Of a stretch of DNA of 64,000 bases, positions 37,779 to 63,434 are shown piece after piece. The stretch's first letter is position 1. Each line of letters begins with the position of its first letter. The DNA lies in the NCBI GenBank assembly GCA_902780135.1, contig CACZEK010000001.1, positions 64,663 through 128,662 of the forward strand. The letters are read 5' to 3'. The notes beneath the pieces were generated by a model, which worked only from the letters and a program-made list of their open reading frames with translations, did no database searches and had not been told where the DNA came from. A program made the translations under genes and the position numbers. The stretch comes from an uncultured bacterium. GTDB lineage: Bacteria; Verrucomicrobiota; Lentisphaeria; Victivallales; UBA1829.

Positions 37779-37791
37779 TCGACAAAAGCCA

Positions 37792-40215: not shown

Positions 40216-40251
40216 GTCTACTCTCCGAAAGTAAAGCAGCCGTCTTTCTGC

Positions 40252-43089
40252 TTATTCCCAGTCTTTCCTTCCGTAGACCTTCAGGACTTCGTCGCCAAGA
40301 TGGTTGATGATCTTCACAGCGATTCTGCCTGTCTCCGGGATGTCGAACGGTCGAGAAAGGTCGCTGTGGATACTTTCCCAGGCATCCTTGTCGATTTCCG
40401 TATTCAGGGTCTTTCTCAGGCTGTCATAGGGGTCTTTCTGTCCCAGGAAGTACGCATGACGCACGAAGAAGCTTTCCTCGTTGTAGTTCGTGTCGATGAA
40501 CCAGCAGGCTATATCCGAGGTGTCTCCGCTGACAACTCGCCCTTCCTGTGGCTTGAAGATGTCAACGCCCTTGATCTTCACCCGGAGCTTACCGCCTTCT
40601 TTCAGGATGTCGATGTCCGGCTCACCGAAGACGACAAAGAGGTTGGCGTTGTTCGTCGTCTTCAGGTCTTCCGCCATGTGAAGGTCCGCGTTGATACGTC
40701 CTTTCAGGATCGGCAGTCTGCCCAGTTTGTTCAGTTCGGAGGACTGTGCATCATAATTGAACGCCAAGGCGATCATCTCGTCGAAACCATTCTCCGATGC
40801 TTCTCTGGCAGCTTCGACCAAATCGGTTCGTGAGACTGTACCGAACTCAGGTCCCAGGAAAATCGCTGCTCGAATCTGTTTGTCTCCACGCATGTACTTT
40901 CCTTCCGCACAGAGCTGCGATCCGGGGAGTGCTTCCAGCGTTTCGAACTCGATTCTGTCCTTCTTATCCATCTGCTGTACACCTGCGATTCGGAGATTAT
41001 CCAGGATCATGGCGGTGAAATCAGCAGCCGGTTTGCAGTCGTAAAGAGCATTCCTCGCGGCTTTCACGTCATTCGTCTGCATCAGGACCAGCGGATCGAT
41101 CAGATTTCCGTCTTCGTCCACGCCAAGCATCCGGTGAGGATCGAGGCTTTCCACCGTGAAGGGACCAGTTACGCGAACAACGGAGTTATCCACATACGGC
41201 TTGTCGTAGAGGTATTCGAACTCTGCATGAGCTGCGATTGATTCGTCGATCTCCTTCTGTCGTTTCAGGCGAAGTTCCCACCAAGCCTCCAATTCCTTCT
41301 GCGGAAGCTTTTTCGCTTCCTTCTCATCAGGACGAGGTACTTCCCATTCCTCCAAGCCACCGAGTTTCTTCCGCAATTCATCCATCTTGGGAGCATAGTT
41401 TTCCCAAATCACATCAATCTCTGAGTTGTTTGCGATACTTTTCAGTGTAACATGAGGAATACGTTCATATACGAAACCGAACCGAATATTGCCGTAGGTT
41501 GGCTGCTCCGAAGGAAGACGGTGCATAATTTCGCCTTCTTTGATCTGACCTTCCCTTGAATCTGCCAGCAGATAGTACGGGAATCTTGCCCCCATGAGAC
41601 GGGCTCGAGCCAAAGCAAGCGCGACACGGCTCGTGTCAATCGTGATCCAACGACGCCCCCATTGTTCCGCGACGTATGCAGTCGTTCCGGAACCACAGGT
41701 CGGATCAAGAACCAAATCACCGGGGTCTGTTGTCATTAGAAGACAGCGTTGGACAATTGAAAGACCTGTTTGGACAACATATATTTTATCTCCACCAAAT
41801 TGGTTTTGTCCAACAGTATCCGTCCAAACATTTGGGATTGGCATTGCAGGAAAATCGAAATAATAACGCACATATCCTATCTTCCCATTGCCACTCACGT
41901 CAAGTCTGTGAGCTTTTTTAAGGCGTTCTATGCCTTCTGCCGAGGTTTTCCAACTTCCTTTTTCGATTGTATGTTTCTTTCCATACAAAAAAATCGGTGG
42001 GCGGGCATTGTCGCCCCCTGCTTGACTTGTAAAATTGTCTAATCCATACAGGCGCATAGAGATTTCTTTTTCTGGAACATAAGCGCGTTTTTCCTCCTTT
42101 TGCCAATTCGAGACACTTATTCTTCTGCCATCGGGGTATTCAAGCTTCTTATATGCAGATGATCCCTCAGCTCCATATACTTTTGTCCTAAAAACCTCGC
42201 GATATTTCATTTTTTCTTTTCCGGCTTTTGAATACCAAAGCACATAATTGCCAACACTGGGTGGAGCCAATAGCTTTGCAGGACTACCTGCTCCTGTGGT
42301 CGTTTGAGTAAAAAGCATTGAAACAAAATTATCGGGTCCAAAAACCTCATCCAGCAGTGCACGAACACGGTGAACATTTTCATCCCCGATCTGAACGAAG
42401 ACGGAGCCGGTATCAGCAAGAAGGTCTCGTGCTATAATCAGACGGTCTCGGAGATAGGAGAGGTAGGAGTGGATACCCTCCCTCCAAGTGTCGCGAAACG
42501 CACGGACCATTTCCGGTTCTCGGGTGATGTCAACTCCATCCTTTTGATTTGGAGACGTGGTAGACCACTGGAAGTTGGAGTTGAACTTGATGCCGTAAGG
42601 TGGATCCATGTAGATGCACTGGACCTGACCACGGAGACCTTCCTTTTCAGCAAGCGACGCCATGACCTGCAGGGAGTCGCCCAGAATCATGCGGTTGGTC
42701 CAATTCTTCTCGTAGTGATAGAAATCCGTCCTGTCGGTTCCTTCCGGAACACCGTTGAAATCGCCGAAGAGATCAGGCGCTTCATCGTTTGCTGCACGTT
42801 CCTTGGTCTCGTTCATAAGGTCGCGCACAATGGTCTGAGGGTGGATTTTCTCCTGGATGTAGATCGGATAAGCCCTGACTTCGAGGGGGTGTTCATCCTG
42901 ACGGTCTTTCCCTCTCCATACAAGCTGAGGATCAAGGTCGGGATTGCGAGGGTATTTGAGTTCAACAGGCGTCAGAGCCATTCTGTCGGCGTAGCTGGAT
43001 TCTTCAGCAGTCGGAATACCGACACGCTTGTCCGGAAACTTGTTGGATACAACGAGCTTCGATTCTGTTTTTTTTCTGCCACGGGGCAT
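40252..43089 (-). CDS. mod: Type III restriction-modification DNA methyltransferase (Mod, beta class)
   Basis: DPPY catalytic motif precedes the DPTCGSGTT SAM-binding motif; start set to MPRG with AAGGAG SD. Confidence 0.92.
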   Translation of the reverse strand: MPRGRKKTESKLVVSNKFPDKRVGIPTAEESSYADRMALTPVELKYPRNPDLDPQLVWRGKDRQDEHPLEVRAYPIYIQEKIHPQTIVRDLMNETKERAANDEAPDLFGDFNGVPEGTDRTDFYHYEKNWTNRMILGDSLQVMASLAEKEGLRGQVQCIYMDPPYGIKFNSNFQWSTTSPNQKDGVDITREPEMVRAFRDTWREGIHSYLSYLRDRLIIARDLLADTGSVFVQIGDENVHRVRALLDEVFGPDNFVSMLFTQTTTGAGSPAKLLAPPSVGNYVLWYSKAGKEKMKYREVFRTKVYGAEGSSAYKKLEYPDGRRISVSNWQKEEKRAYVPEKEISMRLYGLDNFTSQAGGDNARPPIFLYGKKHTIEKGSWKTSAEGIERLKKAHRLDVSGNGKIGYVRYYFDFPAMPIPNVWTDTVGQNQFGGDKIYVVQTGLSIVQRCLLMTTDPGDLVLDPTCGSGTTAYVAEQWGRRWITIDTSRVALALARARLMGARFPYYLLADSREGQIKEGEIMHRLPSEQPTYGNIRFGFVYERIPHVTLKSIANNSEIDVIWENYAPKMDELRKKLGGLEEWEVPRPDEKEAKKLPQKELEAWWELRLKRQKEIDESIAAHAEFEYLYDKPYVDNSVVRVTGPFTVESLDPHRMLGVDEDGNLIDPLVLMQTNDVKAARNALYDCKPAADFTAMILDNLRIAGVQQMDKKDRIEFETLEALPGSQLCAEGKYMRGDKQIRAAIFLGPEFGTVSRTDLVEAAREASENGFDEMIALAFNYDAQSSELNKLGRLPILKGRINADLHMAEDLKTTNNANLFVVFGEPDIDILKEGGKLRVKIKGVDIFKPQEGRVVSGDTSDIACWFIDTNYNEESFFVRHAYFLGQKDPYDSLRKTLNTEIDKDAWESIHSDLSRPFDIPETGRIAVKIINHLGDEVLKVYGRKDWE

Positions 43090-43157
43090 AGTGCTGACTC
43101 CTTGCGTATTTGATTCGGTTTTGTTCCAATGTAGCCTGTTGATTCCGTCTGGCGGTC

Positions 43158-46139
43158 TTATCCCTTCTCCAGAACCTCGTCGATAAATTTCCTGAAATCC
43201 GCCTCGATGTCGAAGAAAGACTCGAACTGGGCGAACCTCCACTGCCCATAACTTCCGAGGTTATTCACCGCTGGAACCCAAAGGTTCTCGGTGGTCAATC
43301 TCTTGTCGTTGACCTGTTCGTTCTTAAAGCCCTTGATCTCGACAATGAGGCGAACGTCGTTGTCGAGGACGACAATGAAATCCGGGAAATAGAGGTGCCG
43401 TTCACCGCTGACCAGATAGGGGATGGAGAATCCGAGGTTATGGTTCTTCACATACGCCTTGACGCGAGGGTGATCTTCCAGAACCCTGCACATCTCTCCT
43501 TCCCAGTCAGAATCCAGTACAGCGTAGTTAATATGGCATCGGGAAGATGTCTCCCAAAGATTGGTTTTTGAGGTCGTAAAGGAAACGTTCGAGGTTGATC
43601 CGGTCGGATTGAACGGATTGATGATGGCGACAGGCCCTCTATTTTCGCTGCCAGGAACCAAAGCATTTGTTATACGCTCACAAGCCCGGTCTGCAAGTGT
43701 TTTGTAGAGGATTTGAGCGGGGTATGCTCCGCCCTTGCAGTGAAGATGATTTTTGACCCAGTCGGAGACAATAGCCTTGGCTTGACCGAAGAGATAAAGC
43801 TCCGGGTCTTCTCCAGGCTTCTTGAAATGCCGTTCAAGAAGGCACTGCGTGAGGTTGTAGATGATGGTGTTCGTACGGACGTTCTGCAAATGTTCGACCG
43901 AAAGAGTGACGCCTTCACCGACCACCGGTTCATTTTTGACCTTGCACGGACCGACTTCTTCAGGAGAAAGCAGGAAATCATGCTCGGGTTTCCATTTCGC
44001 CACGAGCTTGCTGGACTTCATATCGACACGATAGCCGTCAATGTTCGGGAATAGGATTTCCACATCGTTGCGATCAGGTATCACCGCATGAACAGAGACC
44101 ACCTTTCGAGGAGGAACAGGTTTTACAGGGACAGCTTTGCCTGTGAAGTCGAACGGAATACCGAAAATATCCGCATATTCAGCAGGGAACAGCCCGTTTT
44201 GGTCCAGATCATAGTTGGAACGCCTGAGTGCTCGACCAATGACCTGTTCGCAGATCAGCTGTGTACCGAATGCACGAAGACCAAGGATGTGGGTGACGTT
44301 GTTTGCATCCCAGCCTTCCGTCAGCATGGAGACGGAGACAACGCAGCGAATATCTCCGCCAAGCTTGCCTTCTTTTCCAACCGTATTCATGATTTCCCGG
44401 AGGAGATCGGAGTCTGTGAGCTTGTTTGCTTCTTCCGCACTGCCTGTACGTTCGCGGATTTCACGTTTGAACCGCTCGATTTCGTCCTTTGCTGCTGCTC
44501 GGAAATCGTCGCTCAATGCTTCTCCTGATTCCAGCTGCATGCTGTCAACCAGGATGGTACGGGGTTTGGGCAGAGGATTGCCGGATGCATCATAGTTGCT
44601 GAAAAGCGGACATTGCCCTGCTCGAAACGAGGTGTTTTCAGAGAGTTTGTACCCCGAAACGTAGTCGTAAATGAGCTTGGAAATGGCTGTGTTCTGACAG
44701 ACGAAGATAAAGCACGGAGGCGTTGGCATCTTCGCTTCTTCCCATTGATCGAACGTCTTTTCGTAGTGCCCGTACAGCTGGTCAATGGCGGTACACAGTT
44801 CAGCAGGAAGCTTCGCAGGGTCAAGCACTCCTCCGTTCTCACGGTTTTTCTTCGGCATCTGTGAGCCAACATGCTTCCATAGTTCACGGAAAACCGGGAT
44901 TTTGTCTGGATGTGGGTCGTTGTCTGCGACAGGAACACGAGGCAGCTTGACGATACCACACTCGATGGCATCCATGAGAGAGAAATCCGAAACGGTCCAT
45001 GGGAAGAGTTTGCCCTCGGAATAACCGGAACCACGCAGGAAGAACGGCGTAGCGGAGAGATCGACCACACGACACTTCATCTTGCGGTTGACAGCCTCCA
45101 ACCCGGAAATCCAGAGACGTGCCATTTCCTTTCGCTGATTCAGCTCGTCGTTTTCATCCTTCGTCCCTTTGTCCTCTGCCTCATCGTGAGGCTTCTCTCG
45201 ATAGCAGTGATGAGCCTCGTCATTGATGACCAGGATATTCTTGAAGCCCATCAGCTCCGGCATGACCCGTGCAAGCATCTGGCCTTCTGTTTCCTGTGTT
45301 TCGATCTGTGGACCATGACGCCCGTTCAGCAGCGCCTTCGTTCCTTTGGAGAGTTCCAGCAGGTCCTTCCGCTTGAAGACATGGTAGTTCGTGATGACGA
45401 TCTTCGCCTTCATGAGTTCGTTGGCGTAGTCCTGCGGAATAAGCTCGCGTCTCAGGTAGTAGGAATCTGGATCGTTGGGTTGCAGTACACGCAGCCTGTC
45501 CTTGATCGTCAGTCCAGGTGCAACGACCAGAAAACCCTTCGTGAAATACTTGCTGCTTGGATGTCGTACAGCATTGACCGTCTGCCAGGCGATAATCATC
45601 GCCATGACCGTTGTTTTTCCTGCTCCTGTAGCGAGCTTCAGGGCAATACGGTACAGGTCAGGGTTGGCGTCTTCATTACCGGTCTTGATGTGTTCGAGGA
45701 TGTCCTTCCATTGCTTGTTGCCGGGTGCAACCTCAGTGAGCCAGATCAGGACCTCGACAGCTTCGATTTGGCAGAAGAACGGACGTTGATTCAGGAAATC
45801 GTGTGTTCGCCAGTGATGAAGCAATCGTGCAGTCTCAGGCGTAACACCCCACTGCCGTTCCGGAAGATTGCGCCATGCAGAAACGGCGGTACGAATACGG
45901 TTGATCCACTCGTACTCTGCGTACTGTTGACCGTCTTCAACATCGTCAAGCTCGAACTCGGTCTGAACGTAATCATCTCCGGTGGAGTGCTTCGCCCTTG
46001 CCACTGGGGATGTGTACGAAGCTTTCCGTCGTCCTTCCTCAATCACGTTCGTGGGCTGGCCTGTGTCGTCCAGCATCCAATGGCGAGTTGGGATTTCATA
46101 CGGGGAGTTCAAAACCGGACTGTCGAAAAACTCTGCCAT
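43158..46139 (-). CDS. res: Type III restriction endonuclease (Res, BPTD_3080-like family)
   Basis: ATGAGKT, NDEAHH, LSATP, LTEGWD, EQVIGRALR helicase motifs; YFPDF...IVEIKG PD-(D/E)XK nuclease. Confidence 0.92.
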   Translation of the reverse strand: MAEFFDSPVLNSPYEIPTRHWMLDDTGQPTNVIEEGRRKASYTSPVARAKHSTGDDYVQTEFELDDVEDGQQYAEYEWINRIRTAVSAWRNLPERQWGVTPETARLLHHWRTHDFLNQRPFFCQIEAVEVLIWLTEVAPGNKQWKDILEHIKTGNEDANPDLYRIALKLATGAGKTTVMAMIIAWQTVNAVRHPSSKYFTKGFLVVAPGLTIKDRLRVLQPNDPDSYYLRRELIPQDYANELMKAKIVITNYHVFKRKDLLELSKGTKALLNGRHGPQIETQETEGQMLARVMPELMGFKNILVINDEAHHCYREKPHDEAEDKGTKDENDELNQRKEMARLWISGLEAVNRKMKCRVVDLSATPFFLRGSGYSEGKLFPWTVSDFSLMDAIECGIVKLPRVPVADNDPHPDKIPVFRELWKHVGSQMPKKNRENGGVLDPAKLPAELCTAIDQLYGHYEKTFDQWEEAKMPTPPCFIFVCQNTAISKLIYDYVSGYKLSENTSFRAGQCPLFSNYDASGNPLPKPRTILVDSMQLESGEALSDDFRAAAKDEIERFKREIRERTGSAEEANKLTDSDLLREIMNTVGKEGKLGGDIRCVVSVSMLTEGWDANNVTHILGLRAFGTQLICEQVIGRALRRSNYDLDQNGLFPAEYADIFGIPFDFTGKAVPVKPVPPRKVVSVHAVIPDRNDVEILFPNIDGYRVDMKSSKLVAKWKPEHDFLLSPEEVGPCKVKNEPVVGEGVTLSVEHLQNVRTNTIIYNLTQCLLERHFKKPGEDPELYLFGQAKAIVSDWVKNHLHCKGGAYPAQILYKTLADRACERITNALVPGSENRGPVAIINPFNPTGSTSNVSFTTSKTNLWETSSRCHINYAVLDSDWEGEMCRVLEDHPRVKAYVKNHNLGFSIPYLVSGERHLYFPDFIVVLDNDVRLIVEIKGFKNEQVNDKRLTTENLWVPAVNNLGSYGQWRFAQFESFFDIEADFRKFIDEVLEKG

Positions 46140-46676
46140 GGGGTGTCCTTATGCTTTCTCCGTTCGTTTGAGGTCGGAGTGTTGCCGTTCATGTTGAAGC
46201 TGATTGTGCAATACTGTACTACAATCTATATATAAAATCAAGAAAATAGTTTCGATTTTAAAGTTCTTTTTGCGATAATCGTCTGAATATAGCCGTGTGA
46301 TACGGTCCAGACAAGTGAAAACAGAGCCATCTCCAGCATGAAATATCCCGTGGGAAAGGTATTGTTAAGCTCGCAGTAATCTATCATCAAAAAAACTGTA
46401 AGCACATAGAAAGTGCATTTTCAATATATTAAATTACCGTATTTACAATATATAGTCTGTTCAGATATCTTTTGGAATTGCATATTTTGTATTTAAAAAT
46501 GCAGTTTTGACTATGAGGAATGCATAGTACATTTGTTTTAATATAAGGACATATGCGCACATGCGCGTTATTAATATCCACTCTGAAATGAAACAGGAGA
46601 GAGAGTAGATGGCACAGATACGCACAGGATACAAGCGCAGTCAACATGACCCTCATCAAAGCAATCAGGAAGGATC

Positions 46677-46716
46677 AGGGGCTGATGCAGAATCTCACAG
46701 GCATGCATCAGCCCCC
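46677..46716. repeat. Perfect 13-bp inverted repeat, 14-nt loop
   Basis: AGGGGCTGATGCA / TGCATCAGCCCCT. Confidence 0.85.
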
Positions 46717-47093
46717 TTTCCAACCTCTCCGTCCAAAAGGTTATTCGTCTTCGTAAAAGGTGCTGTCCAGCATTGCTCTGGAGATTTCAGATCCATGTGC
46801 AGAACCTTTCGAAAAACATTCCCTGGCTTTTACCCTGTCTATCTCGTATTATGTACTCGTCACAAAATATTTTAGCCAAGTGAAGTAACTGTTTTCCGGG
46901 AATGGCGTTCTATAGCATTTGGATATATATGACAATGGTGAGTCATAAAGACACGAATATTTTCGGAAGTGTCTTCTGCGTTGAATACAACAATCCGCCA
47001 AACTTGATAGGATGTCCAGATGAGGCAAACATCGCCTTTGTCTGCAATCTTTCACCAAGTTAAACATAACTTTAACCAAAAGAGAAAAACAGT

Positions 47094-47204
47094 ATGGAAA
47101 AAGAAATTGATTCGAACAGAATGCTGGAAATTGCCACAGGAACATTTATCGCTATGTTGGCGTATGGAGTCATCAAACTTATCATCAGGTCTCTGTGCGA
47201 TTAA
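47094..47204 (+). CDS. 36-aa single-TM peptide (not in the ORF track)
   Basis: MEKEIDSNRMLEIATGTFIAMLAYGVIKLIIRSLCD, followed by an 11-bp hairpin. Confidence 0.45.
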   Translation: MEKEIDSNRMLEIATGTFIAMLAYGVIKLIIRSLCD

Positions 47205-47224
47205 ACTCAAGGCAGTTCTCCACA

Positions 47225-47255
47225 GTCCTACCGGATAGAATATCTCCGGTAGGAC
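47225..47255. terminator. Hairpin between convergent small ORF and YagK-like gene
   Basis: GTCCTACCGGA / TCCGGTAGGAC perfect 11-bp inverted repeat. Confidence 0.6.
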
Positions 47256-47338
47256 ATTCCAAATATTTGGATCAGTTTTATCTTATTAACAAATGTATTT
47301 CTTTTGATAATTAATACACCAGTTCTGAATGCAAGTGA

Positions 47339-47881
47339 TTATCTTTTTATTCTGGAAGTGAAGAAAGTTTTTCCTTTAACACCTTCTTTTTGATCTGTTT
47401 TTGCCAGATAGCTTACTTGACGCTGTGCTTCATGTAAATCTGTTAAATCAGGATTATCTCGGTGAATCATAATTCCATTTCTATGTCCATCGTTACAATA
47501 ATGAACTGAACCACCTGGTCCTACAGTATTCTGAATGACTTTTTTCATGTTTTCAAAATGCGGATAAGTACTTTCTGTTTTTTCCCCATTCACGAATAAT
47601 ACCATGTGATAGTGGACTTTACCTTTTGAGCTTATTTCTCTTGCTACGATATGCGCAGGAGCATAGCCAGCATTTTTCTCTTTTTCAATATACCGTTTGT
47701 TAATTCTTATAATAGCTTCTTGCTCTGTTCCTTCTGGAAGATGTATATCCTCTCTTATTACAAGCGTTTTAGCGTGTTCGTTAATATAGTTATTCATGAG
47801 TTTGAAAGATGCTTTTAGAATCTTTTTGTTCATTGGGATATTGAGAACACTTGCAGTTGAAAGAAATTCATCATCGTTCAT
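47339..47881 (-). CDS. YagK/YfjJ (inovirus Gp2-like) HUH endonuclease domain protein
   Basis: KTLVIREDIHLP, ARE...HYH (HUH), NGIMI, SYLAK (catalytic Tyr), KTFFTS. Confidence 0.8.
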   Translation of the reverse strand: MNDDEFLSTASVLNIPMNKKILKASFKLMNNYINEHAKTLVIREDIHLPEGTEQEAIIRINKRYIEKEKNAGYAPAHIVAREISSKGKVHYHMVLFVNGEKTESTYPHFENMKKVIQNTVGPGGSVHYCNDGHRNGIMIHRDNPDLTDLHEAQRQVSYLAKTDQKEGVKGKTFFTSRIKR

Positions 47882-48137
47882 ATATTTTTCCTCATTAGAT
47901 TATTTCGATTGTTATATCTGTTGATATTTAATAGAGAAGATCGTTTAATAGAGTGTTATATAGTAATATATATTATCCTTTCCCTTAGACGGGTAAAAGC
48001 CATCTTAAAATAATTGATGTTTTGAATGAGACATCAAGTTTTAGGTGTATATGACACATCGGCATATAATAATATTAATCATGTAAAGATTTATTATCTT
48101 ATACAAGTTATCGTCACACAAAAAAGGAGCATTAAAT

Positions 48138-48611
48138 ATGGACAACAATGAATCCAACCCGTTAGAAAGAATAGGAGAACTTCTTGAACAATATCTGAAC
48201 ATGTTTGGCCAGGCCAGAGTAGCTTTTTATTCAATTCCACTTTTTGAAGATCCTGAAAGCTATTCCAATTACATGAATTCCTTCACGTCTGCTTTAAGAC
48301 GAGCGAATTGCCGCCCAGCCTATGCGATGTCCTATAATTCCAACAGAGGATGTAGAAACATTCTTTTGATTGTTCAGGGATACTTCCGGAACGATATGAA
48401 CGATGTCACGGATGCAGCTCAGAGGATTATGCAGCTGTACTCCCCATTTCCAATTCAGTTTATAGCTGATCTTCCGATGAATTATGCCACGCTAGATCAG
48501 GACAAAATGAGAGTATTCGACGCCATCAACAGAATAGGTTTTCTTCCTTCATCTCCTCAAAGGCTTCTGCCTCCGCATACACGAACTTTTGCCATTTCAA
48601 AACTCTATTAA
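48138..48611 (+). CDS. Degenerate YagK/YfjJ-like paralogue lacking HUH and Tyr
   Basis: Colinear similarity to 47339-47881 (PAY, ILLIVQG, RTFAISK); catalytic residues absent. Confidence 0.55.
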   Translation: MDNNESNPLERIGELLEQYLNMFGQARVAFYSIPLFEDPESYSNYMNSFTSALRRANCRPAYAMSYNSNRGCRNILLIVQGYFRNDMNDVTDAAQRIMQLYSPFPIQFIADLPMNYATLDQDKMRVFDAINRIGFLPSSPQRLLPPHTRTFAISKLY

Positions 48612-48802
48612 AAGTCCTAAATAGCGGAAAAACGAGTAAAATTAGACAAAAAAAGGCGTTTTTAAGCTATTTTTGAGCATATTTTTGCCATAAAAGCCTG
48701 TTTTTTACCTTAAAAACGATTATCAAGGGAATTTAAGCATATATTCCTCCACCGAATATCAAAAATTGACATTTCACCACTAACCCTATTTTGGAGGTAA
48801 CA

Positions 48803-50341
48803 ATGCAAATTCCCGTAATCAAAAACGAATTGGCCGGAGCCCTGTCGGCTCTGGGGAAGCTGGTCTCCCGGACGTCTCTCATCAAGGCGTATCAGGGGAT
48901 CGAAATCGAAGGCAAAGCGAACATGCTTTACTTCAGGACCCGAAACGTGATTGAGCAGATCGAATTCCGGCTGTTTGCCGACCTGGAAAATGATTTCCCG
49001 GCAATTCTCGTGGAGTTCGAGCAGTTCCGTCAAGCGGTTCGTAACTGCAAGAACAAAACGCTGAAGTTTGAGATTGACTGTCGCGAGGTCTTCATCGACG
49101 ATGTCAAAATGGCTCCTGTCAAAGGGAGTTTTCCACAGAAGGAACAAGTCCCGGATCAAGATATCTGCGTCATGGAGCTTCCTTCTGACACGCTTTCTGC
49201 GCTGTCTTTGCTCGCTCCTATCACCGACCGTGACACGAATGCCAACAAACGGGCAGATACCCGTAGGATTCTCACGGGAATCAACATCAGCGGAGATGGA
49301 TTCACCGCCACAGACGGCAAAGAACTCTCGAACATCCCTCTCAAGCTCGGAACGAATGGAAGCATCACGATTCCATTTCCCCTTGCCTTGCTTGCGACCA
49401 AAGCCTTTGGCGAATCCGGTCGTCTTTGCACATGGCAGAAGAATGAAGACACGCATTTCGATCTTACTCTCGGCGAATGGACGTGGTCTGGCAAGGCTCT
49501 CAACGGAAATTATCCAAAATGGAAACAGATCGTGTCTGAACGAACAGATGCGACGCATTATGTGAACATTCAAGATGACCAAGCTGAACATTTGATGCGT
49601 TATTTGAAAAGCATCCCGGATGATCCGAGGAACTTCAACAGCGTTAAGGTCAGCCGTCTTCCTGATGCTCCGGGCAATCTCCACCTCGAAAGCTCCAACG
49701 GCATGCTGTTCAATATCCATGCCGAGTTCGATCCGAACTGGAACGGTTTAGCGTTCAGGGTCAGAAAAGAATTCCTTCTGCATCTGCTGGATGCTGGACA
49801 TCGGAAGATTGAACTCAACGATGAGTTAAGTCCGATTGTCGGAACAGGTGGCTGTGGCAAATATATCACAATGCCCATTCGTTCCGCAAAACCGAAACAG
49901 GAAGCGTCCAATCAAATGGAAACACAGACCAATATCCATCCTGAACAGGACGAGCCTCAGACCATCCGAGAAGAAGAGGAAACTGTTTCCGTGCAGAATC
50001 CACCTCACCCGCAGGAAAGCACCCCTCAAACCCCCATTCCCAATACCAACCTCAACAAGGAGAACCCCACTATGGAAACCAACAACATCACCCACGTCGA
50101 GTCTGCTCCCGTTCAGACTTTCACCCCGAATCATGAATCTGCAAAGGCGTTGCCTTCGATTGACGAGCTGATTGCCGGCATTGAAGCGTTCAAGTCCACA
50201 CTGAAAACGCTGTCGGATGAATCCGCCGTCATGAGCCGCAGAATTCGCGAGTTCGCTCTTGCGCAGAGACAGAAAGACCGCGAATACAAGCAGACCAAAC
50301 GCACACTTGATCGTGTTCGTGTTGCAAGCGGAGCTGCCTGA
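48803..50341 (+). CDS. DNA polymerase III beta-clamp (DnaN)-like protein with C-terminal extension
   Basis: TRRILTGI, TATDGKEL, KALNGNYPKWKQIV, KEFLLHLL, KYITMPIR ending at residue 360; GGAGG SD. Confidence 0.8.
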   Translation: MQIPVIKNELAGALSALGKLVSRTSLIKAYQGIEIEGKANMLYFRTRNVIEQIEFRLFADLENDFPAILVEFEQFRQAVRNCKNKTLKFEIDCREVFIDDVKMAPVKGSFPQKEQVPDQDICVMELPSDTLSALSLLAPITDRDTNANKRADTRRILTGINISGDGFTATDGKELSNIPLKLGTNGSITIPFPLALLATKAFGESGRLCTWQKNEDTHFDLTLGEWTWSGKALNGNYPKWKQIVSERTDATHYVNIQDDQAEHLMRYLKSIPDDPRNFNSVKVSRLPDAPGNLHLESSNGMLFNIHAEFDPNWNGLAFRVRKEFLLHLLDAGHRKIELNDELSPIVGTGGCGKYITMPIRSAKPKQEASNQMETQTNIHPEQDEPQTIREEEETVSVQNPPHPQESTPQTPIPNTNLNKENPTMETNNITHVESAPVQTFTPNHESAKALPSIDELIAGIEAFKSTLKTLSDESAVMSRRIREFALAQRQKDREYKQTKRTLDRVRVASGAA

Positions 50342-50484
50342 TTCATCCCTGCATCGTCTCCTCCCGACATGGATTTGAACTTAAATTTAGGCTACAATTT
50401 TTATTGTAATAGTTATTATACATTATATAGTCAGAGCTATTTTGCTTCGAATACATTAACCACAACCAACACAGGAGAAATGCC

Positions 50485-50913
50485 ATGGCAAAAACTCTCG
50501 AATTATTCTATGCAATCAAAAACGGTCAGCCATCTGTCCAGATCCATGTCACAGAGATCGTCGAAGGAAACATCAAGGACAAGCTCCAGGAGATGATGAA
50601 CGATCTGCCTGGGCCAATCGCCGAGTCATTGAAAGGAGTCCCACCAGCACGCCTTATATCGGACGATGAGGTGAATGTGCAGGATGTTTCTGTTCCGAGC
50701 AAGAAGACGTCAACGCCAAAAAAACAACCATTCCAAGCAGGGATCGGTGAAACAATTACCGAACGGCAATTATATTGCATCAAGAAACACCTGGAAAAGC
50801 AAAACCTTGACGAAACCGCTTATTGTCAGTCGTTTGGCGTGAATCGACTGGAAGACCTCCCCAAAAGTATTGCTACTGACATTGTTAGCGAGATTAAAAG
50901 TAAGAAGTACTAA
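50485..50913 (+). CDS. Hypothetical protein, paralogue of 51208-51672
   Basis: AGGAG SD; C-terminal ITERQL...FGVNRLEDL...IVSEI helical domain. Confidence 0.75.
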   Translation: MAKTLELFYAIKNGQPSVQIHVTEIVEGNIKDKLQEMMNDLPGPIAESLKGVPPARLISDDEVNVQDVSVPSKKTSTPKKQPFQAGIGETITERQLYCIKKHLEKQNLDETAYCQSFGVNRLEDLPKSIATDIVSEIKSKKY

Positions 50914-50939
50914 CCTCACCATTCAACATAGAGGATTTA

Positions 50940-51110
50940 ATGATGCAAGCTAAAATTAACGTATCGATCCCGCTGGAACACTGCGAGATCATGTTCGGTC
51001 TGGTGGATACACTCGAGCAAAAAAACGAAAACGATCCAAAACTTGTGGCGATGATCGACCTGATCCAAAAAATCGTTGAGCGGTATATGAACGCCAAAGA
51101 AAAACACTGA
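50940..51110 (+). CDS. 56-aa hypothetical protein (not in the ORF track)
   Basis: GAGGA SD; MMQAKINVSIPLEHCEIMFGLVDTLEQKNENDPKLVAMIDLIQKIVERYMNAKEKH. Confidence 0.6.
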   Translation: MMQAKINVSIPLEHCEIMFGLVDTLEQKNENDPKLVAMIDLIQKIVERYMNAKEKH

Positions 51111-51146
51111 AACCAATAAACCAAAATTCATCGAATAACCTCCCGA

Positions 51147-51177
51147 ATGACCACGACGGCCTGCCCGTCGTGGTCAT
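51147..51177. repeat. Perfect 13-bp intergenic hairpin
   Basis: ATGACCACGACGG-CCTGC-CCGTCGTGGTCAT; no T-tract. Confidence 0.85.
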
Positions 51178-51207
51178 GCTTTAACCTCAAATCGAAAGGA
51201 AATCACT

Positions 51208-51672
51208 ATGCTCAAACTCAACACCGCATATGCAAAGAAAGTCCCAGCCGATGCTGACTATTCCAGCCAGTCGTACCACGTCTCCATGGAAATCGAACTT
51301 CCAGACGGACTCACGCCTGACCAGATCAATGCGAAAATCCACGAAACCTTCGATCAGCTCCGAAACAGCGTGGAGGCCGAATTAAAAGGAAATCCTGTGC
51401 CTTATCAGACGGCTTCTCTTCCGATGGAAAACGCCCAGAACTCCCAGCAGGTGGCTTCTGCACTGCAGCAGAAAAATTACGGTAAGAGGAACGGCACGAC
51501 CTCTGATGCTCCGGCATCTCCCAAACAGATCAAGTATCTCCTCGACCTCGCAAAGATGTACGGCGTTTCGCCCGATCAGATCAAGGTCAAGTTCAACGTA
51601 TCCTCAGTCGAAAGCCTGACCAAAATTCAGTGTTCCAAAGCCATCGACGAGCTCAACGGAAAGGCGGCGTGA
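51208..51672 (+). CDS. Hypothetical protein, paralogue of 50485-50913
   Basis: AAGGA SD; C-terminal ASPKQI...FNVSSVESL...AIDEL domain. Confidence 0.8.
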   Translation: MLKLNTAYAKKVPADADYSSQSYHVSMEIELPDGLTPDQINAKIHETFDQLRNSVEAELKGNPVPYQTASLPMENAQNSQQVASALQQKNYGKRNGTTSDAPASPKQIKYLLDLAKMYGVSPDQIKVKFNVSSVESLTKIQCSKAIDELNGKAA

Positions 51673-51674
51673 AC

Positions 51675-52466
51675 ATGGAACGTGAAATTGAATCCATCCG
51701 CGATACGCCTCACTGGTCATACAGCGCGTTTCAGACCTATCTCGCCTGTCCCATGCGATATTACTTCCGGTACATCGAACATGCCGAGGTGGAGCGTACT
51801 AACGTCAGTATGCCGTTCGGAAGAGCGTTTCATGCGATCTTGAGCATCCGCGCGAAGAAGGGCATCTGTTACACGCTGGAAGACGCAAAGGAGGATTTTG
51901 CAGTCTATTTCCGAGGTGAAACTGAAGCAAGCGAAAACATTTCGTACAAGCCTGATGAGGACTACTGGTTCTGGAATCAGCGTGGCTGCGACATGCTGGA
52001 CGTGGCTCTCGCAGAATGGCCCGACGACTACAGCGTGAAGTCTGTTGCCGAAGCTTTCAGCGTGGAAGTGCCTAGTCTCAGCAAGCCCCTGGTCGGAGAA
52101 TTTGACCTTGTTACTGTTGACGGTGGAGACGAGACCATTTGCGACTGGAAGACTGCTTCTATGAAGTGGCCGAACGGAAAGGCAGATCGTGATCTTCAAG
52201 CGACCGTTTTCACCTACGCCTATCAGAAGAAGTATGGAGAGAACCCTCTGTTCCGGTTTGACGTGTTCACAAAGGCAAAAACGCCTGCTCATCACCAGTT
52301 CTACACGCTCAGAACTCAGGACGATTTCGACCGTTTTGTTTACCTCGCCGGGAAGATCGAGAAGGCCGTCAACACTGGTATCTTCCTTCCGGTCGAATCC
52401 TGCATCAACTGTGCCGAATGTGCTTACAGCAGCCGCTGTAAAGCTGCTCACAGGAAGGCAGCGTGA
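51675..52466 (+). CDS. PD-(D/E)XK nuclease, Cas4/AddB-like with Fe-S cysteines
   Basis: WSYS...LACP, GEFDLV, ICDWKT, Q...Y, C-terminal CINCAECAYSSRC. Confidence 0.88.
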   Translation: MEREIESIRDTPHWSYSAFQTYLACPMRYYFRYIEHAEVERTNVSMPFGRAFHAILSIRAKKGICYTLEDAKEDFAVYFRGETEASENISYKPDEDYWFWNQRGCDMLDVALAEWPDDYSVKSVAEAFSVEVPSLSKPLVGEFDLVTVDGGDETICDWKTASMKWPNGKADRDLQATVFTYAYQKKYGENPLFRFDVFTKAKTPAHHQFYTLRTQDDFDRFVYLAGKIEKAVNTGIFLPVESCINCAECAYSSRCKAAHRKAA

Positions 52467-52469
52467 CGC

Positions 52470-53198
52470 ATGGGACTGATTATGCAAGAAGGCAAGTTTG
52501 TCAGCAGAGACGAAGTTGCTCATGTTGACACCCCCTGTTCAACCGCCACATGGCGACCAATTCCCCATATTGACGTCATCGACGCTGTGACAAAAGTCGT
52601 CCGAGCCCATGACTGGGAAATCGAGGGTGAAAAGTTTGGTCTTGCCAGAGAAGGACAGAAGATGTTCGGAGTAGTGGAAATCTCCCGTTCATCCTCACCG
52701 GAATGGCATCGTTGCATTGGGATTCGTAACAGCCACGACAAATCCTTTGCTGTTGGGCTGTCTGCTGGAATCGTCGTCTGTGTCTGCACGAACATGGCAT
52801 TCGGTGGTACAACGGTAATCAAACGTCGCCATACAAGCGGTATTGAACTCGCTGAACTCATTGACCGGGCTGTAGCCTCTCTCGAAGACGATTTCCTGAC
52901 AACCGAAACCGTATGCGAGGATATGAAGGACCTCTACCTCAAAGACGATGACGAGGCTCGGAGTTGCATCGTGCGTGCTGCCGAACTTGGCGTTATCAAT
53001 TCGTCCGACATTCTCCCAGTCTATCGTGAGTTCAAGGAACCTTCGCATGAGGAGTTCAGAGAACCGACACGCTGGAGTCTCCTGAACGCGTTTACAGAAA
53101 CCGTGAAGAAATACTCGCCTCAGCGTGTGGATCATTCCTACCTCGCTTTGAACAGAGCCTTCGGCCTGGACGGTCGTCAAGCAGCGATCTTCGCCTGA
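52470..53198 (+). CDS. DUF932 domain protein
   Basis: TATWRPIPH, IGIRNSHDKS, VCVCTNMAF, WSLLNAFTE. Confidence 0.85.
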   Translation: MGLIMQEGKFVSRDEVAHVDTPCSTATWRPIPHIDVIDAVTKVVRAHDWEIEGEKFGLAREGQKMFGVVEISRSSSPEWHRCIGIRNSHDKSFAVGLSAGIVVCVCTNMAFGGTTVIKRRHTSGIELAELIDRAVASLEDDFLTTETVCEDMKDLYLKDDDEARSCIVRAAELGVINSSDILPVYREFKEPSHEEFREPTRWSLLNAFTETVKKYSPQRVDHSYLALNRAFGLDGRQAAIFA

Positions 53199-53225
53199 AA
53201 AAAGCTCAATCTGAATTCAGAAATT

Positions 53226-53269
53226 GTTCAGTCGGGGTAGAGGCTTTGTTGCCTCTACCTCGATTGAAC
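53226..53269. repeat. 19-bp imperfect hairpin ending the clamp operon
   Basis: GTTCAGTCGGGGTAGAGGC / GCCTCTACCTCGATTGAAC (two G-T pairs). Confidence 0.75.
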
Positions 53270-53354
53270 TCAAATTGAACACAAATCTTTTTGGAGGGGA
53301 AAAATGTTCACCAGAAAAAACAGCTTCATCCCACAAGAACCACCCGCTGACGCT

Positions 53355-53447
53355 ATGAAATGGATTGGACGGCTTCTGCTGACAGTAGTTGCCGGGATCA
53401 TCCTCGCCAAGTTCGGCGTTCGTCTTCCTGATAACATGAAGCTGTAA
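53355..53447 (+). CDS. 30-aa hydrophobic peptide (not in the ORF track)
   Basis: MKWIGRLLLTVVAGIILAKFGVRLPDNMKL; no obvious SD. Confidence 0.4.
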   Translation: MKWIGRLLLTVVAGIILAKFGVRLPDNMKL

Positions 53448-53822
53448 TACCTTGGAGAAGTCGTAATCGGCTTCTCTTTTTTGGTCAGGTAGCGGTTGTT
53501 GGTTTTTGTCTTGTGAATTTGGGTGATGATCTGTCCACACCCGTTATAATCGAAGTGAAAACGCAAGGTAGCAGGTCCCGTATAAACCGATGGCGGGTTG
53601 ACCCGTCTTGCAAATAACCGCGCGGATCCATCCTGTCGTTTGTTGCGGGGGAGAGAAAAGGTAGCTCGTCAGGGCAAAACCTGCTTGACTTTTCCTGAAA
53701 ACGTGTTAGGTTATTGTTAGGTTATCGTTAGCCTAACAAGGGCCAAACTGCCGTTTGGAACGGTTCCAAGCGGTAAAAAAATACCTACAATAGCGTTCTT
53801 CCCAACTTCGCAAAACTGAGGC

Positions 53823-53850
53823 AAAAAAAGGCCATCCGTGACGGACAGCC
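53823..53850 (-). terminator. Element-supplied terminator for tRNA-Met
   Basis: Minus strand GGCTGTCCG-TCA-CGGATGGCC followed by T7. Confidence 0.75.
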
Positions 53851-53851
53851 A

Positions 53852-53907
53852 TGAAAAATCTTTGGTAGCGGGGGTTGGAATCGAACCAACGGCCTCCAGG
53901 TTATGAG
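53852..53907. repeat. att direct repeat (right junction)
   Basis: Identical to 36308-36363; overlaps the intact tRNA. Confidence 0.97.
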
Positions 53908-53937
53908 CCTGACGAGCTACCTCTGCTCTACCCCGCA
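53863..53937 (-). tRNA. Initiator tRNA-fMet(CAT)
   Basis: 75 nt, CAT anticodon, unpaired 1:72, A11-U24 pair (initiator hallmarks), encoded CCA. Confidence 0.9.
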
Positions 53938-54872: not shown

Positions 54873-54949
54873 GGGGTATTAGCTCAGTTGGCTAGAGCGC
54901 CTCGCTGGCAGCGAGGAGGTCATGAGTTCAAGTCTCATATACTCCACCA
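54873..54949 (+). tRNA. tRNA-Ala(GGC)
   Basis: 77 nt, G3-U70 identity pair, CCTCG-CTGGCAG-CGAGG anticodon arm, CCA; upstream TTGACT-N16-TATATT. Confidence 0.95.
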
Positions 54950-54951
54950 TT

Positions 54952-56262
54952 TGATATGCATAGGGTTTTTTGGACAGTTCCGGATGGAATTCCAAAATGC
55001 CCTTTACTTTTTTTCGGCCTCGAACTTTCGCTCCGCCTCGCATGGGGTCATCATCCCCAACCTCTGATGAGGTCGCATGTTGTTGAAAAACTCCACGAAG
55101 TCCAAAACATCTCGCCGCAAATCCTCCAGAGTGTCGTAGTAGTTGTGGGAAAGTTCTTCCCTCTTCAGACATGCAAAGAAGGATTCCATAACTGCATTGT
55201 CCAAAGGTGTTCCCGGATTTGAAAACGACTGTTTAACTCCAAGGTCCCGCAAATGCTTGCGGAATGCGTATGCGGTATACTCCGTTCCCTGATCGGAATG
55301 AAAGGTCAAGTGATTTGGTCGATTCCGTTTTTCGTATGCAGAATCAAAAAGCCTTATCATGAAACTGGCACTGGTATTTTCCGTGACATCACAGGCTACC
55401 ACCACGCGAGCAAACAGGTCAATGATGACGGCGACGGAGCACAAGACATCTTTGACATAAACATTGGAGAAATCGCTCACCCAAACGAGATTCGGAGCCG
55501 CTGTCTGAAACTTGCGTTGGACTTTGTTACGATAATACTTGTACTTCCGATTAGTCGTTGAATAATAACGGAGTCGCACTTGCTTGCAGACCAGCCCCAT
55601 TTCTTTCATGAGTCGGGAGATATGTGCTTCGCTGACCTTATATCCTTTTCGTTTGAGTTCATGTTTGATTTTCCGTGCCCCAAATCGTTCTCGGCTATCG
55701 AAAAAGATTTGCTTCACGATGGGACGAATCTTGTCATCATTGAGTTCATACCATTTTCGAACAGGAGCGCGTAGTTTGTGATGATAGTATGTCGATCTTA
55801 AAACGCCTAAAGAATTGCACAGGATATAAACGGAATAATCGGATTGCATCTGGTCAATCGCTGCAATTTTATACTCCAGAGGAACTTTTTGTAACAATCC
55901 ACTGCGATGAATAATTTCATTTTCCGTCCTGAGAGTTTGTATTTCCCGTTCAAGACGGTAAACATCCTCCGGAGTAACAGTGCGACGACATTTTCGCTTG
56001 ATTGGGGTATATTTCTGGATCCAGTTATACGCAGTGCTTTTACAAACACCAAACTTTTTACATAGAGCTGTGACTGGTGTCCCCGCACGGTACAACGCAA
56101 CAAGTTTCGCTTTTTTCTTATCAGTTTTCATGCTTGTTTAACCATTCATGATGAAGACTATGTCAAAAGCACTTATCATACAGAAACCTTTTCTTGTTCG
56201 TTTTTGTTGAGTTCAATGGTCATGTCTATTATTGTAATATATCCAAAATCCCGTTGATTACA
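54952..56262 (-). mobile_element. IS3-family insertion sequence (far end uncertain)
   Basis: TG-N18-GGACA IS3-type end at 54952; weaker candidate partner ends finishing at 56182 or 56262. Confidence 0.7.
55004..56131 (-). CDS. IS3-family transposase (OrfA-OrfB in one frame)
   Basis: HTH N-terminus; WVSD, FHSDQG, DNAVMESFF...KRE DDE triad. Confidence 0.93.
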   Translation of the reverse strand: MKTDKKKAKLVALYRAGTPVTALCKKFGVCKSTAYNWIQKYTPIKRKCRRTVTPEDVYRLEREIQTLRTENEIIHRSGLLQKVPLEYKIAAIDQMQSDYSVYILCNSLGVLRSTYYHHKLRAPVRKWYELNDDKIRPIVKQIFFDSRERFGARKIKHELKRKGYKVSEAHISRLMKEMGLVCKQVRLRYYSTTNRKYKYYRNKVQRKFQTAAPNLVWVSDFSNVYVKDVLCSVAVIIDLFARVVVACDVTENTSASFMIRLFDSAYEKRNRPNHLTFHSDQGTEYTAYAFRKHLRDLGVKQSFSNPGTPLDNAVMESFFACLKREELSHNYYDTLEDLRRDVLDFVEFFNNMRPHQRLGMMTPCEAERKFEAEKK

Positions 56263-56760
56263 AGAAAAATGAACATATAGTGGTATCTTATATTTTTTCC
56301 CCGTAAGAGTCAAGTGTTTTTCTGAAAAAAGAGGATGTTAGGATCAATGATCACGGTCGCTGAAGGCATAGACGGCGGCTTCGAGCTGGGCTTTTGCGTT
56401 GGAGGCGTTGATGACGGCTGCAAGAAGACTTATAACATAGCGCAGGAACGCCGCTTTGTCAAGGGGAAACCGGCATCATTTCCCGAACAGAACTTTTTTC
56501 TGACTTTTTTGATAAAACGATTTGATTTTTGCGAGAAACATACTATATTAATTATTGTACTTCATTTGGGGTATGGGGAATTACTGTTTTGTTGACGAGA
56601 GTCAGCATAAAGAATTCTCAGTTCTTTTTCAAATCACGAGAGAAATTATTTGAGGTTGACGCCGTTTTGGGTTTTGGTCCCTAACAAACTCGCTTCTTCC
56701 TCGGAATAACTGGTCTGCTTTTTTCGGTGTTTCTTCGCAGGAATTGACCGAAAAGCACAG

Positions 56761-56822
56761 TCTGAGCTCAGACCGGATAAAGATAGGAGGACGGTAGTCC
56801 GAATCTCGGGTACTCCACCATT
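56761..56822 (+). pseudogene. Decayed tRNA-Ala-like copy / att relic
   Basis: AGCTCAG, GGAGG, GTCCGAATCTC and TACTCCACCATT are colinear with tRNA-Ala(GGC); the anticodon arm is missing. Confidence 0.45.
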
Positions 56823-56938
56823 GAATTCTCCGCCGGTCACATTAGACCGGCTTATTTTTTGCCTTTCTCCCCCACAAATCCGAGTTCAGCGGGACTTTGA
56901 GGGAGCTTTCGGAGGAGGTCTTTCGAGGACATTTCGTT

Positions 56939-57006
56939 CTCAAAACGCCCCTGATTCTCAGTTTTTGAGAATCCCGGAGCAGGTCAGTCCTGCTCGGCGT
57001 TTTGAG
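56939..57006. other. Perfectly paired three-way-junction structure (candidate ncRNA or ssDNA site)
   Basis: 11-bp outer stem with 8-bp and 7-bp inner hairpins. Confidence 0.6.
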
Positions 57007-57386
57007 GTTAAATCGCACTCGGAGTTAACTTAACGATAGGGTTTGAGGTCAAATATGCGTTTTTTCTCAAACTTTTCCTCTAAATGACCTGCTCGCAAGC
57101 TCAAAAAGGGGTAGTGCTTGAGAGAACGCTTTCGCGGGCTATCCCCAAATTAATAGGTTATGGGATAGAATCTCCAAAAAGATTTGATTCATCATATATC
57201 TTGTTCGTTCCCAAAACACATAATGACACCACGTTCTTCGCGCTTACAACGTGTCTGCAAATCACGTTTTTGGCGCGAATAACGTGAATATTCTTCGCAA
57301 AAAGCGCATGAACGGCACGTTTTCCACTTGCAATTCAGCTTTCTTGTGGTATAGTATGGTCAGAACAGCAACACCGGAGGTGCGAC

Positions 57387-58721: not shown

Positions 58722-58993
58722 TTTGCCCGCGCGACAAACGCGATTTGTGTCGCGTCCTGCCTATGCGCTTCAACCCGGCAAATGCCCGAAACCCCGTCAA
58801 ATCGTGATCTATAACAATAATCGACAACTCAAAAAAAGTAGCAACTGGAAATCTGCCTTTTTTATGACTTTTCGCCATTCCCCTCTTGCATTTTTCCACA
58901 AAATGCGGTATAATATAGCCTAAACGAAATTCGAAGTTTTTTGTGATAAGTCATCATTTGAAAAAGAAACGCACGGGGCGGAAAGCAAGAGGG

Positions 58994-59064
58994 TGCGTTT
59001 AGTCTGACAAAGGGGGTACATGCGTTTAGTCTGACAAACAGAGAAGGTGCATTTAGTTTGACAC
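58994..59064. repeat. Three direct repeats at an exact 27-bp period
   Basis: TGCGTTTAGTCTGACAAA at 58994 and 59021; TGCATTTAGTTTGACAC at 59048. Confidence 0.85.
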
Positions 59065-59356
59065 TTATCCAACAACAGCCGAACACTCTCTCGAAAACGA
59101 ATTGACAGAGGTTCCCTTGACAGGCAAACGGGAAACAATTCCCCGTGAAGCCTCCCTTTTCTTCACGGAATGATTTTTCTTTCTGAAGGGTAACTCTAAA
59201 AATATGATCGGATGGATTTTCAGCGGATGGGCAAAAAGGCCAATGCTGGAAGATTTGAGCGTGGCGGCCTGAAGGCAACCACCGAAAAACTTACCAATTG
59301 GAATTTGCCCGGACGCGAAAAGCCGCGGAAAACCAATTTTTAGGGGTGCCCTGAAT

Positions 59357-60514: not shown

Positions 60515-60739
60515 GTCAGAGCTTTCCTTGAATGGAGAATACGGAGGGAGTTTTGCGGATTTGCCTGAATGATATTAACAAATCCTTTTGTTTTGCAGAG
60601 GCAATATACACCATTCCGAATCGCTTTTCAAATGAATTTTATGATATTTGCCGAAAATAATTCAGGGCATCTTATTGGATGGCGTTTTTATGAAAATCGT
60701 TTCTCCTGTCAAGGCTTGACTTCCCACACGGACCTGACA

Positions 60740-63431: not shown

Positions 63432-63434
63432 TTT

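Follow-up and report, generated by a model that had tools for sequence, protein, structure and literature searches.

The stretch of DNA described here (the window) comprises 64,000 nucleotides of contig CACZEK010000001.1 from an uncultured bacterium of the Victivallales, and contains a gene encoding a divergent paralogue of the bacterial β sliding clamp (DnaN) with the three-domain DnaN fold and a long C-terminal tail (Table 1). The open reading frame (ORF) starts with an ATG at 48803, ends with the stop codon at 50339-50341 and encodes 512 amino acids (aa). GGAGG is found 6 nucleotides (nt) 5' of the start codon and a TTGACA hexamer further upstream, and all homologues in the family alignment begin at the same methionine as the window protein. 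The gene is located in a 17.5-kb integrative island at tRNA-Met (36279-53907), between the integrase and the tRNA gene and not in a dnaA-dnaN-recF context. No second clamp was found in the window.

The single sequence gives moderate support for the identity as a clamp. TIGR00663, the equivalog model for the housekeeping DnaN, matches residues 1-255 only (E = 6.9e-15) and scores 54.9 bits against a cut-off of 137.65, while PHROG 947, annotated as a processivity factor, matches residues 1-254 (E = 2.7e-11). The Pfam clamp domains are below threshold in a single-sequence scan, and a phmmer search against the PDB gives E = 0.28. At the level of the family the sequence comparison is decisive. A profile made from 51 diverse members (alignment A2) matches the β clamps of the PDB with E = 2.4e-35 over profile positions 1-354, that is along the whole DnaN chain to its MPxR end. 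When the E. coli DnaN sequence (from NC_000913) was aligned to the window clamp by means of the family hidden Markov model, the order of motifs noted in the original prediction was reproduced throughout: DTRRILTGI pairs with DVRYYLNGM, TATDGKEL with VATDGHRL, NGNYPKW with DGRFPDY and YITMPIR with YVVMPMR. The claim of a full-length clamp that ends at residue 360 also holds, with MPIR (residues 357-360) aligned to the C-terminus of DnaN, and the tail is therefore 152 aa long.

An AlphaFold2 model built on A2 has a mean predicted local distance difference test score (pLDDT) of 86, with most of residues 1-360 above 92 and a dip to 72-86 at residues 141-160. Foldseek superposes this monomer model on solved clamps with template modelling (TM) scores of 0.73-0.81 and root-mean-square deviations of 3.4-4.7 Å, and it also superposes on phage DnaN-type clamps. 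The original prediction had left room for a fold other than that of a clamp, and the model thus settles this point in favour of the clamp. An earlier model based on 23 close homologues was poor (pLDDT 53) and matched clamps only; it was replaced by the A2 model.

The tail consists of a linker and a helix. Residues 361-450 have a net charge of -9, and the pLDDT is mostly below 50-55 over about residues 371-450. In the family the linkers are 28-102 aa long and variable in sequence, and their pooled composition is rich in T, P, E, K, A, N, and Q. Residues 452-510 are predicted to form a single helix (pLDDT 82-96) with conserved hydrophobic residues at positions 453, 456, 460, 463, 467, 470, 474, 477, 481, 484, 495, 498, 502, and 505. 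The hydrophobic periodicity is 3.5 residues (power 1.36, compared to 0.39 at 3.6), and the tail therefore carries the signature of a coiled coil. The helix is acidic in its N-terminal half and strongly basic in its C-terminal half, and it is followed by a conserved hydrophobic C-terminus which is ASGF or MAI in relatives and ASGAA in the window clamp. The consensus of the helix is approximately P-(L/F)-(D/E)-E-L...RK.KEA...QKQKER(D/E)(F/Y)..A.R..E(R/K)I(R/K).A(SGF or I/V). The helix is conserved down to relatives at 18-26% identity, and all full-length members sampled from the representative clusters of the family share a three-part layout in which the body, of about 360 aa, is followed by a low-complexity linker that varies and then by a C-terminal helix. 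The acidic linker and coiled coil proposed from the single sequence are thus borne out as a conserved tether with a coiled coil, and the window gene almost certainly encodes a true clamp paralogue, carried by a mobile element, whose conserved tail is functional.

Comparison of the tail with Pfam and the PDB gave no meaningful match, and a match to Sec10_N was dismissed as chance similarity between coiled coils. One protein in the library of representatives (P0244, 255 aa) is a fusion in which 200 aa of unrelated N-terminal sequence precede the final 56 residues of the tail helix, and it is probably a rearranged copy. Gene fission was considered because of a tail-less relative of 372 aa (P0157) and rejected; this protein is encoded on a 1.7-kb contig with unrelated sequence after the clamp, and was taken to be a copy that has been truncated or rearranged.

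Within the linker, which cannot otherwise be aligned, the family has kept a short motif resembling KE.K.TM. At the DNA level this motif is a Shine-Dalgarno (SD) sequence followed by an in-frame ATG. The window reads AAC AAG GAG AAC CCC ACT ATG, the last codon being that of Met424, 89 codons before the stop codon. The original prediction, whose overall interpretation was partly right, missed this conserved internal start site. After dereplication of the family to 32 members, an in-frame ATG located 82-95 codons before the stop codon was found in 31, in each case preceded by an SD core at a distance of 6-10 nt. In L038, the one other member, the same AAGGAG is followed by a GTG start, and a relative of only 19% identity has AAGGAGG, a 5-nt spacer and ATG. 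As a background, such SD sequences precede 10.7% of the other in-frame ATGs and 12.5% of all codon positions. The members are related and the counts are thus not independent, but the signal still spans clamps that are only 19-26% identical.

The nucleotides of the SD sequence are conserved at 81% (A at -14), 87% (G at -13, -12, and -10), 100% (A at -11), and 90% (A at -8). At the protein level these positions vary: the first residue may be Lys, Gln or Thr, the second is Glu and the third may be Glu, Asn or Lys, all within the persistent nucleotide pattern xxG-GAG-RAx. The codon preceding that of the glutamate may be AAG, CAG or ACG (Lys, Gln or Thr), with the third-position G retained, and the glutamate codon itself is GAG in 87% of the members, compared to 45% of the Glu codons in the gene as a whole. 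Since the nucleotides are kept while the encoded residues vary, selection acts on the RNA and not on the protein. Taken at its simplest, the sequence pattern implies that internal initiation yields a tail-only product of 85-90 aa, and the internal start is likely to be real. Gene callers independently start proteins of 87-89 aa at the equivalent of Met424. Short database entries that match the tail only are N-terminally truncated fragments.

Compared to the E. coli β clamp, several residues of the peptide-binding pocket, which is located between domains II and III, differ: H175 corresponds to K173, R176 to E174, Y153 to R155, Y154 to I156, R246 to Q242, N320 to R321, and S346 to P344. The replacement of the histidine of the DGHRL motif by lysine, noted in the original prediction, is the first of these. 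Counterparts of R152, L155, T172, D173, G174, L177, P242, M362, P363, and R365 are retained, and the pocket core is made up of R154, T170, G172, L175, P238, M357, and P358 (R152, T172, G174, L177, P242, M362, and P363 in E. coli). In the 51-member alignment the five most conserved positions of the body are M357, P238, L175, G172, and R154, all of them pocket residues, and T170, P344, and P358 come next. Across the family the core residues are conserved at 90-98%. At the rim, the position of His175 is Lys or Arg in 90% of the members, R176 is replaced by E or Q, and Y153 and Y154 by R or K and by V or I, respectively. The pocket had originally been described as altered; this is correct for the rim but overstated for the core, which is the most conserved part of the family. 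Judged from the sequences, the pocket appears to be re-tuned at its rim only, yet it is the most constrained part of the clamp, and is predicted to bind a ligand.

The helices lining the DNA channel also display conserved basic residues: K7 (92%), K19 (100%), R76 (92%), R80 (73%), K200 (73%), and K322 (82%). Each of the six channel helices in the model has at least one position that is 59-100% Lys or Arg in the family. The conserved pocket together with the basic channel argue for a clamp that still encircles DNA and still recognises a linear motif; they speak against an inactive decoy.

The family is large. A word-indexed search found at least 347 clamp homologues; the 120 matches listed are 478-526 aa and nearly all of them span the whole query. 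An exhaustive search of representatives at 50% identity gave 661 clusters at E ≤ 0.001. The matching genomes are metagenome-assembled genomes (MAGs) of rumen Lentisphaerae/Victivallales, with two to three clamp copies per MAG on different contigs. A distant branch includes an NCBI entry from a Sphaerochaeta MAG labelled "hypothetical protein", and a word-indexed profile search seeded with the most distant members gave four proteins. No relative was detected by tblastn in 72,556 PLSDB plasmids and 50,697 INPHARED phage records, and the search of IMG/VR yielded no family member, the matches there being ordinary phage clamps (24-26% identity). Neither a tailed clamp nor a combination of DUF932 with a clamp was described in the papers found by literature searches.

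A survey of 11 genome loci and 80 metagenome loci showed the order clamp, o154, PD-(D/E)XK nuclease, DUF932 in about 50 loci. Some of the apparent gaps in these neighbourhoods are antisense ORFs picked in GC-rich DNA by a crude ORF selection. Upstream of the clamp the genes vary, often with orf157 and a YagK-type gene, while the large surrounding genes differ between loci and look like cargo. In a relative from a biogas reactor (26% clamp identity) a YagK-like gene, a small ORF, the clamp, an o154-like gene and PDDEXK_1 are found, with DUF932 next on a sister contig. A low-GC relative (19% clamp identity) has clamp, o154, PDDEXK_1, and DUF932, with RadC further along. Since this order is kept in distant relatives, the operon belongs to the backbone and not to the cargo. 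The clamp is thus a conserved backbone component of tRNA-integrating islands in gut, rumen and digester bacteria of the Victivallales/Lentisphaerae and of a Sphaerochaeta-like lineage. One metagenome contig (Ga0208297_1000185, L034) has two family clamp genes in opposite orientation within one 21-kb locus, which suggests adjacent or nested islands.

Among the partners, o154 is better conserved than the clamp itself, with 46-47% identity between phyla compared to 26% for the clamps of the same lineages. Its N-terminus reads MLK(L/I)NASYSKKVPAE.EYSSQSYH, and o154 and orf142 both end in a helix-rich S.KQ..YL..L domain. Homologues of o154 are also found at L096:2278-2778 and L101:2634-3095. The protein has no Pfam or PDB match and belongs to no recurrent Pfam family. 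The Cas4-like nuclease also matches Cas4 models and phage exonuclease PHROGs, and its CxxC...C cysteine tail is conserved. Neither this nuclease nor the DUF932 protein matches a PDB sequence. The C-terminus of the DUF932 protein (window 53160-53198; homologues L002-L096), which is outside the Pfam domain, mostly reads FGLDG-x4-(L/I)(W/F). This vaguely resembles C-terminal clamp-binding motifs and is absent in the most distant relative, L101; it can be regarded as a lead only.

The island has a guanine-cytosine (GC) content of about 0.38-0.52, compared to 0.58-0.67 in the chromosome upstream. Besides the clamp operon it encodes an 807-aa ATPase with no other recognisable domain and no match among PDB sequences; judged from its sequence it may be the island helicase. 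Homologues of this ATPase are also found close to the clamp operon in L001, L004, and L080. Between the restriction-modification cargo and the Rep-like gene there is an AT-rich stretch of 1.2 kb (46140-47338, GC about 0.35-0.38) without convincing genes but with several palindromes, for instance at 47225-47255 and 46667-46726. This stretch might be an origin of replication or have a regulatory function. The YagK/YfjJ-type protein contains HYH (HUH-like) and SYLAK (YxxK tyrosine) motifs, both conserved with L097. Such motifs are typical of rolling-circle Rep proteins. No family match was obtained for orf157 in scans of Pfam, TIGR and PHROG; it aligns weakly to a region of the YagK-type protein, without the histidines, and may from this alignment be a degenerate paralogue. 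Family scans found no DNA polymerase or clamp loader among the island ORFs, and no polymerase among the conserved neighbours. Outside the island, there is another lower-GC stretch beyond tRNA-Ala (54873-54949), within 54873-64000. It contains an IS3-family transposase (55004-56131), a GH5 cellulase (59357-60514) and two AAA_14/DUF4143 ATPases (57387-58721 and 60740-61978).

Table 1. Features of the island and of the tailed clamp gene (window positions).
Feature	Position	Strand	Evidence
Left island boundary, direct repeat of the 3' part of tRNA-Met	36279-36363	.	85-nt repeat, 87% identical, long exact core
Island tyrosine integrase, next to left repeat	36432-37778	+	PF00589, E = 5e-25
807-aa AAA_25-type (RepA/DnaB-like) ATPase	37792-40215	-	PF13481 weak match; Walker A GPPAAGKS
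Type III restriction-modification cargo (Mod 40252-43242, Res 43158-46139)	40252-46139	-	PADLOC MTase_III, REase_III; Pfam
YagK/YfjJ (inovirus gpII-type) HUH Rep-like protein, divergent	47339-47881	-	PF11726, PF23343; recurrent neighbour
orf157, conserved small gene upstream of clamp	48138-48611	+	21 loci
Tailed β-clamp gene	48803-50341	+	512-aa ORF, stop included; SD and ATG; full-length homologues
Clamp body, residues 1-360, three DnaN-type domains ending MPIR	48803-49882	+	Profile, AlphaFold2, Foldseek, pocket mapping, basic channel helices
Disordered acidic linker, Pro/Thr/Gln/Glu-rich, residues 361-451	49883-50155	+	Low pLDDT, net charge -9, family-variable
Internal SD AAGGAG (50057-50062), 9-nt spacer, in-frame ATG (50072-50074, Met424)	50057-50074	+	Family conservation
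Putative nested tail-only ORF, 89 aa, same frame	50072-50341	+	Conserved SD and start; gene-caller starts
C-terminal heptad (coiled-coil) helix, residues 452-510	50156-50332	+	AlphaFold2, periodicity, conservation
orf142, diverged paralogue of o154	50485-50913	+	Alignment; present in several loci
o154, small two-domain protein, most constant clamp neighbour	51208-51672	+	44 loci
Cas4-like PD-(D/E)XK nuclease, ATG 51675 (upstream GTG 51630 also open)	51675-52466	+	PF12705, E = 2.5e-22
DUF932 protein	52470-53198	+	PF06067, E = 2.6e-12; conserved downstream partner
Right island boundary, repeat 53823-53907 overlapping tRNA-Met 53863-53937	53823-53937	-	Repeat and tRNA call

The evidence leans towards the clamp being a DNA-bound platform for enzymes that replicate or recombine the island. 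It would assemble on the DNA of the island into a dimeric ring like that of DnaN, and there serve the HUH Rep-like initiator and the co-transcribed o154, Cas4-like nuclease and DUF932 protein, possibly together with a host polymerase, the partners docking in the peptide pocket. The ring might for instance support rolling-circle or second-strand synthesis by a host polymerase after nicking by the HUH protein, or alternatively hold the Cas4-like exonuclease, o154 and the DUF932 protein on the DNA. The tail helices would form a coiled coil, and the pairing could take place within one ring through its two tails, between different rings or with a partner. The internal SD sequence and start would give a free tail peptide of about 89 aa from the same frame, and this peptide, by pairing with the tethered helices or by competing for them, could set the assembly state of the clamp. 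A more far-reaching proposal is that the two products, a clamp with a tethered helix and a free helix, make up with o154, the Cas4-like nuclease and the DUF932 protein an undescribed clamp-based DNA-processing machine of a cross-phylum class of islands, in which the free tail is a state switch. The clamp might then alternate, for example, between a capped and a tail-zipped state, in the latter of which it is locked or bridges two DNA molecules. This proposal is tentative and rather doubtful.

Several observations weigh against the platform reading and the free tail peptide. The database proteins of 87-89 aa come from contigs of about 700 bp, and therefore prove only that gene callers favour the start equivalent to Met424. 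In principle, the internal SD-ATG might also serve for pausing instead of initiation. The structural model is that of a monomer, and the dimeric ring, the stoichiometry of the coiled coil and any contact between tail and pocket are hypothetical; indeed, every step of the mechanism is derived from sequence and predicted structure. The partners o154 and DUF932 gave no informative database match. As the island has neither polymerase nor clamp loader, the clamp would depend on host factors, and the changed pocket rim may affect their binding.

DnaN homology alone would be compatible with an ordinary dnaN orthologue in which a stop codon has been missed, a possibility raised in the original prediction, or which has been fused by a sequencing error. 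This alternative is refuted: the gene scores below the TIGR00663 cut-off and is located in a low-GC island bounded by attachment sites, not beside dnaA or recF, several copies are found per genome, and hundreds of homologues (430-540 aa) have preserved the tail at the protein level. The original prediction instead favoured an orthogonal or decoy clamp. The term orthogonal is reasonable in the sense of element-specific, as this is a gene of a mobile element distinct from the housekeeping dnaN. A decoy or poison clamp would sequester host clamp-binding proteins, or form mixed dimers with the host DnaN, and thereby slow down or redirect the replication of the host to the benefit of the island. 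Such a role would fit a pocket rim that differs from that of E. coli DnaN and an island without polymerase or clamp loader, and a free tail peptide could regulate it. It is nevertheless quite improbable, because the basic residues of the DNA channel are conserved, no part of the protein is under stronger constraint than the pocket core, the gene is invariably linked to the nuclease and DUF932 in a fixed operon with DNA-processing rather than toxin-type partners, and two to three clamp copies are tolerated per genome.

It might also be that the clamp acts in defence or counter-defence by carrying the Cas4-like nuclease, with o154 and the DUF932 protein, along DNA in order to find and cut foreign DNA or to protect the DNA of the island when it enters a new cell. 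The islands do carry defence cargo (type III restriction-modification in the window), the Cas4-like nuclease is always present, and DUF932 is near RadC in one relative, RadC being a common core gene of Pseudomonas islands (10.1101/2024.08.29.610337). However, the clamp operon is an invariant backbone while the defence genes are variable cargo, no PADLOC model matches the clamp, o154, the DUF932 protein, orf157 or the Rep-like protein, and no relative was found among the phages or plasmids searched. A role in defence is thus regarded as unlikely.

The tailed clamp family, with at least 661 clusters at 50% identity, has no description in the literature that was searched, and it marks a group of genomic islands that spans phyla. 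Few replication proteins are as well studied as sliding clamps, which are normally bare rings, while here a tailed ring, probably with a nested product, is tied to an operon of mobile islands encoding a nuclease and two proteins of unknown function. If the clamp serves replication or recombination of the island, it would illustrate the way in which islands that lack a polymerase recruit the host replisome or reserve it for themselves. An initial clue to the function of DUF932 would also be gained, and one to that of the YagK/Gp2-type island backbone, which is widespread and includes the cryptic islands of enterobacteria.

The window clamp shares with bacterial DnaN (E. coli β, PDB 1MMI/2POL) the full-length three-domain fold, the MPxR end, the basic channel helices and the pocket core. 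It differs in being only about 14-16% identical, in being encoded on a mobile island and in its changed pocket rim, as well as in its linker and coiled-coil tail of 152 aa and its nested start, canonical DnaN having a C-terminus without either. Skaliter, Paz-Elizur and Livneh reportedly described in 1996 an internal in-frame start in E. coli dnaN that gives rise to an ultraviolet-induced β* fragment. While β* is a shortened clamp and not a tail, the nested product in the window would consist of the tail only. Internal in-frame starts that yield two products from one gene are also known from the Tn5 transposase and its inhibitor, and from TrfA-44/33 of RK2. As in these cases, the predicted truncated isoform would share an oligomerisation segment with the long form. 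Unlike Tn5 and TrfA, the putative short clamp product would lack the entire functional body and retain only the end of the tether and the coiled coil.

The DnaN-type processivity factors of phages (PHROG 947, and the clamps of a Nodularia phage and Caulobacter phage Sansa in BFVD) are likewise divergent DnaN folds on mobile DNA. They are, however, mostly 340-390 aa and occur with a phage replicase, while the tailed family has a conserved tail and no polymerase in the element. The islands themselves resemble a class described in Pseudomonas, where the core consists of an integrase, AlpA, RadC, YqaJ exonuclease and an inovirus Gp2-like protein, combined with variable defence cargo, and where one island, I55, is moved by a jumbo phage (10.1101/2024.08.29.610337). 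No clamp is mentioned for these islands (10.1101/2024.08.29.610337). Common to the I55-type islands and the island in the window are a tyrosine integrase at a t(m)RNA gene, a Gp2/YagK-type protein, an exonuclease of the PD-(D/E)XK class and variable defence cargo, and RadC, a core gene of the I55 type, is present beside the tailed-clamp operon in one relative. The two types are found in different phyla, and the exonuclease is Cas4-like in the window island while that of the Pseudomonas islands is YqaJ.

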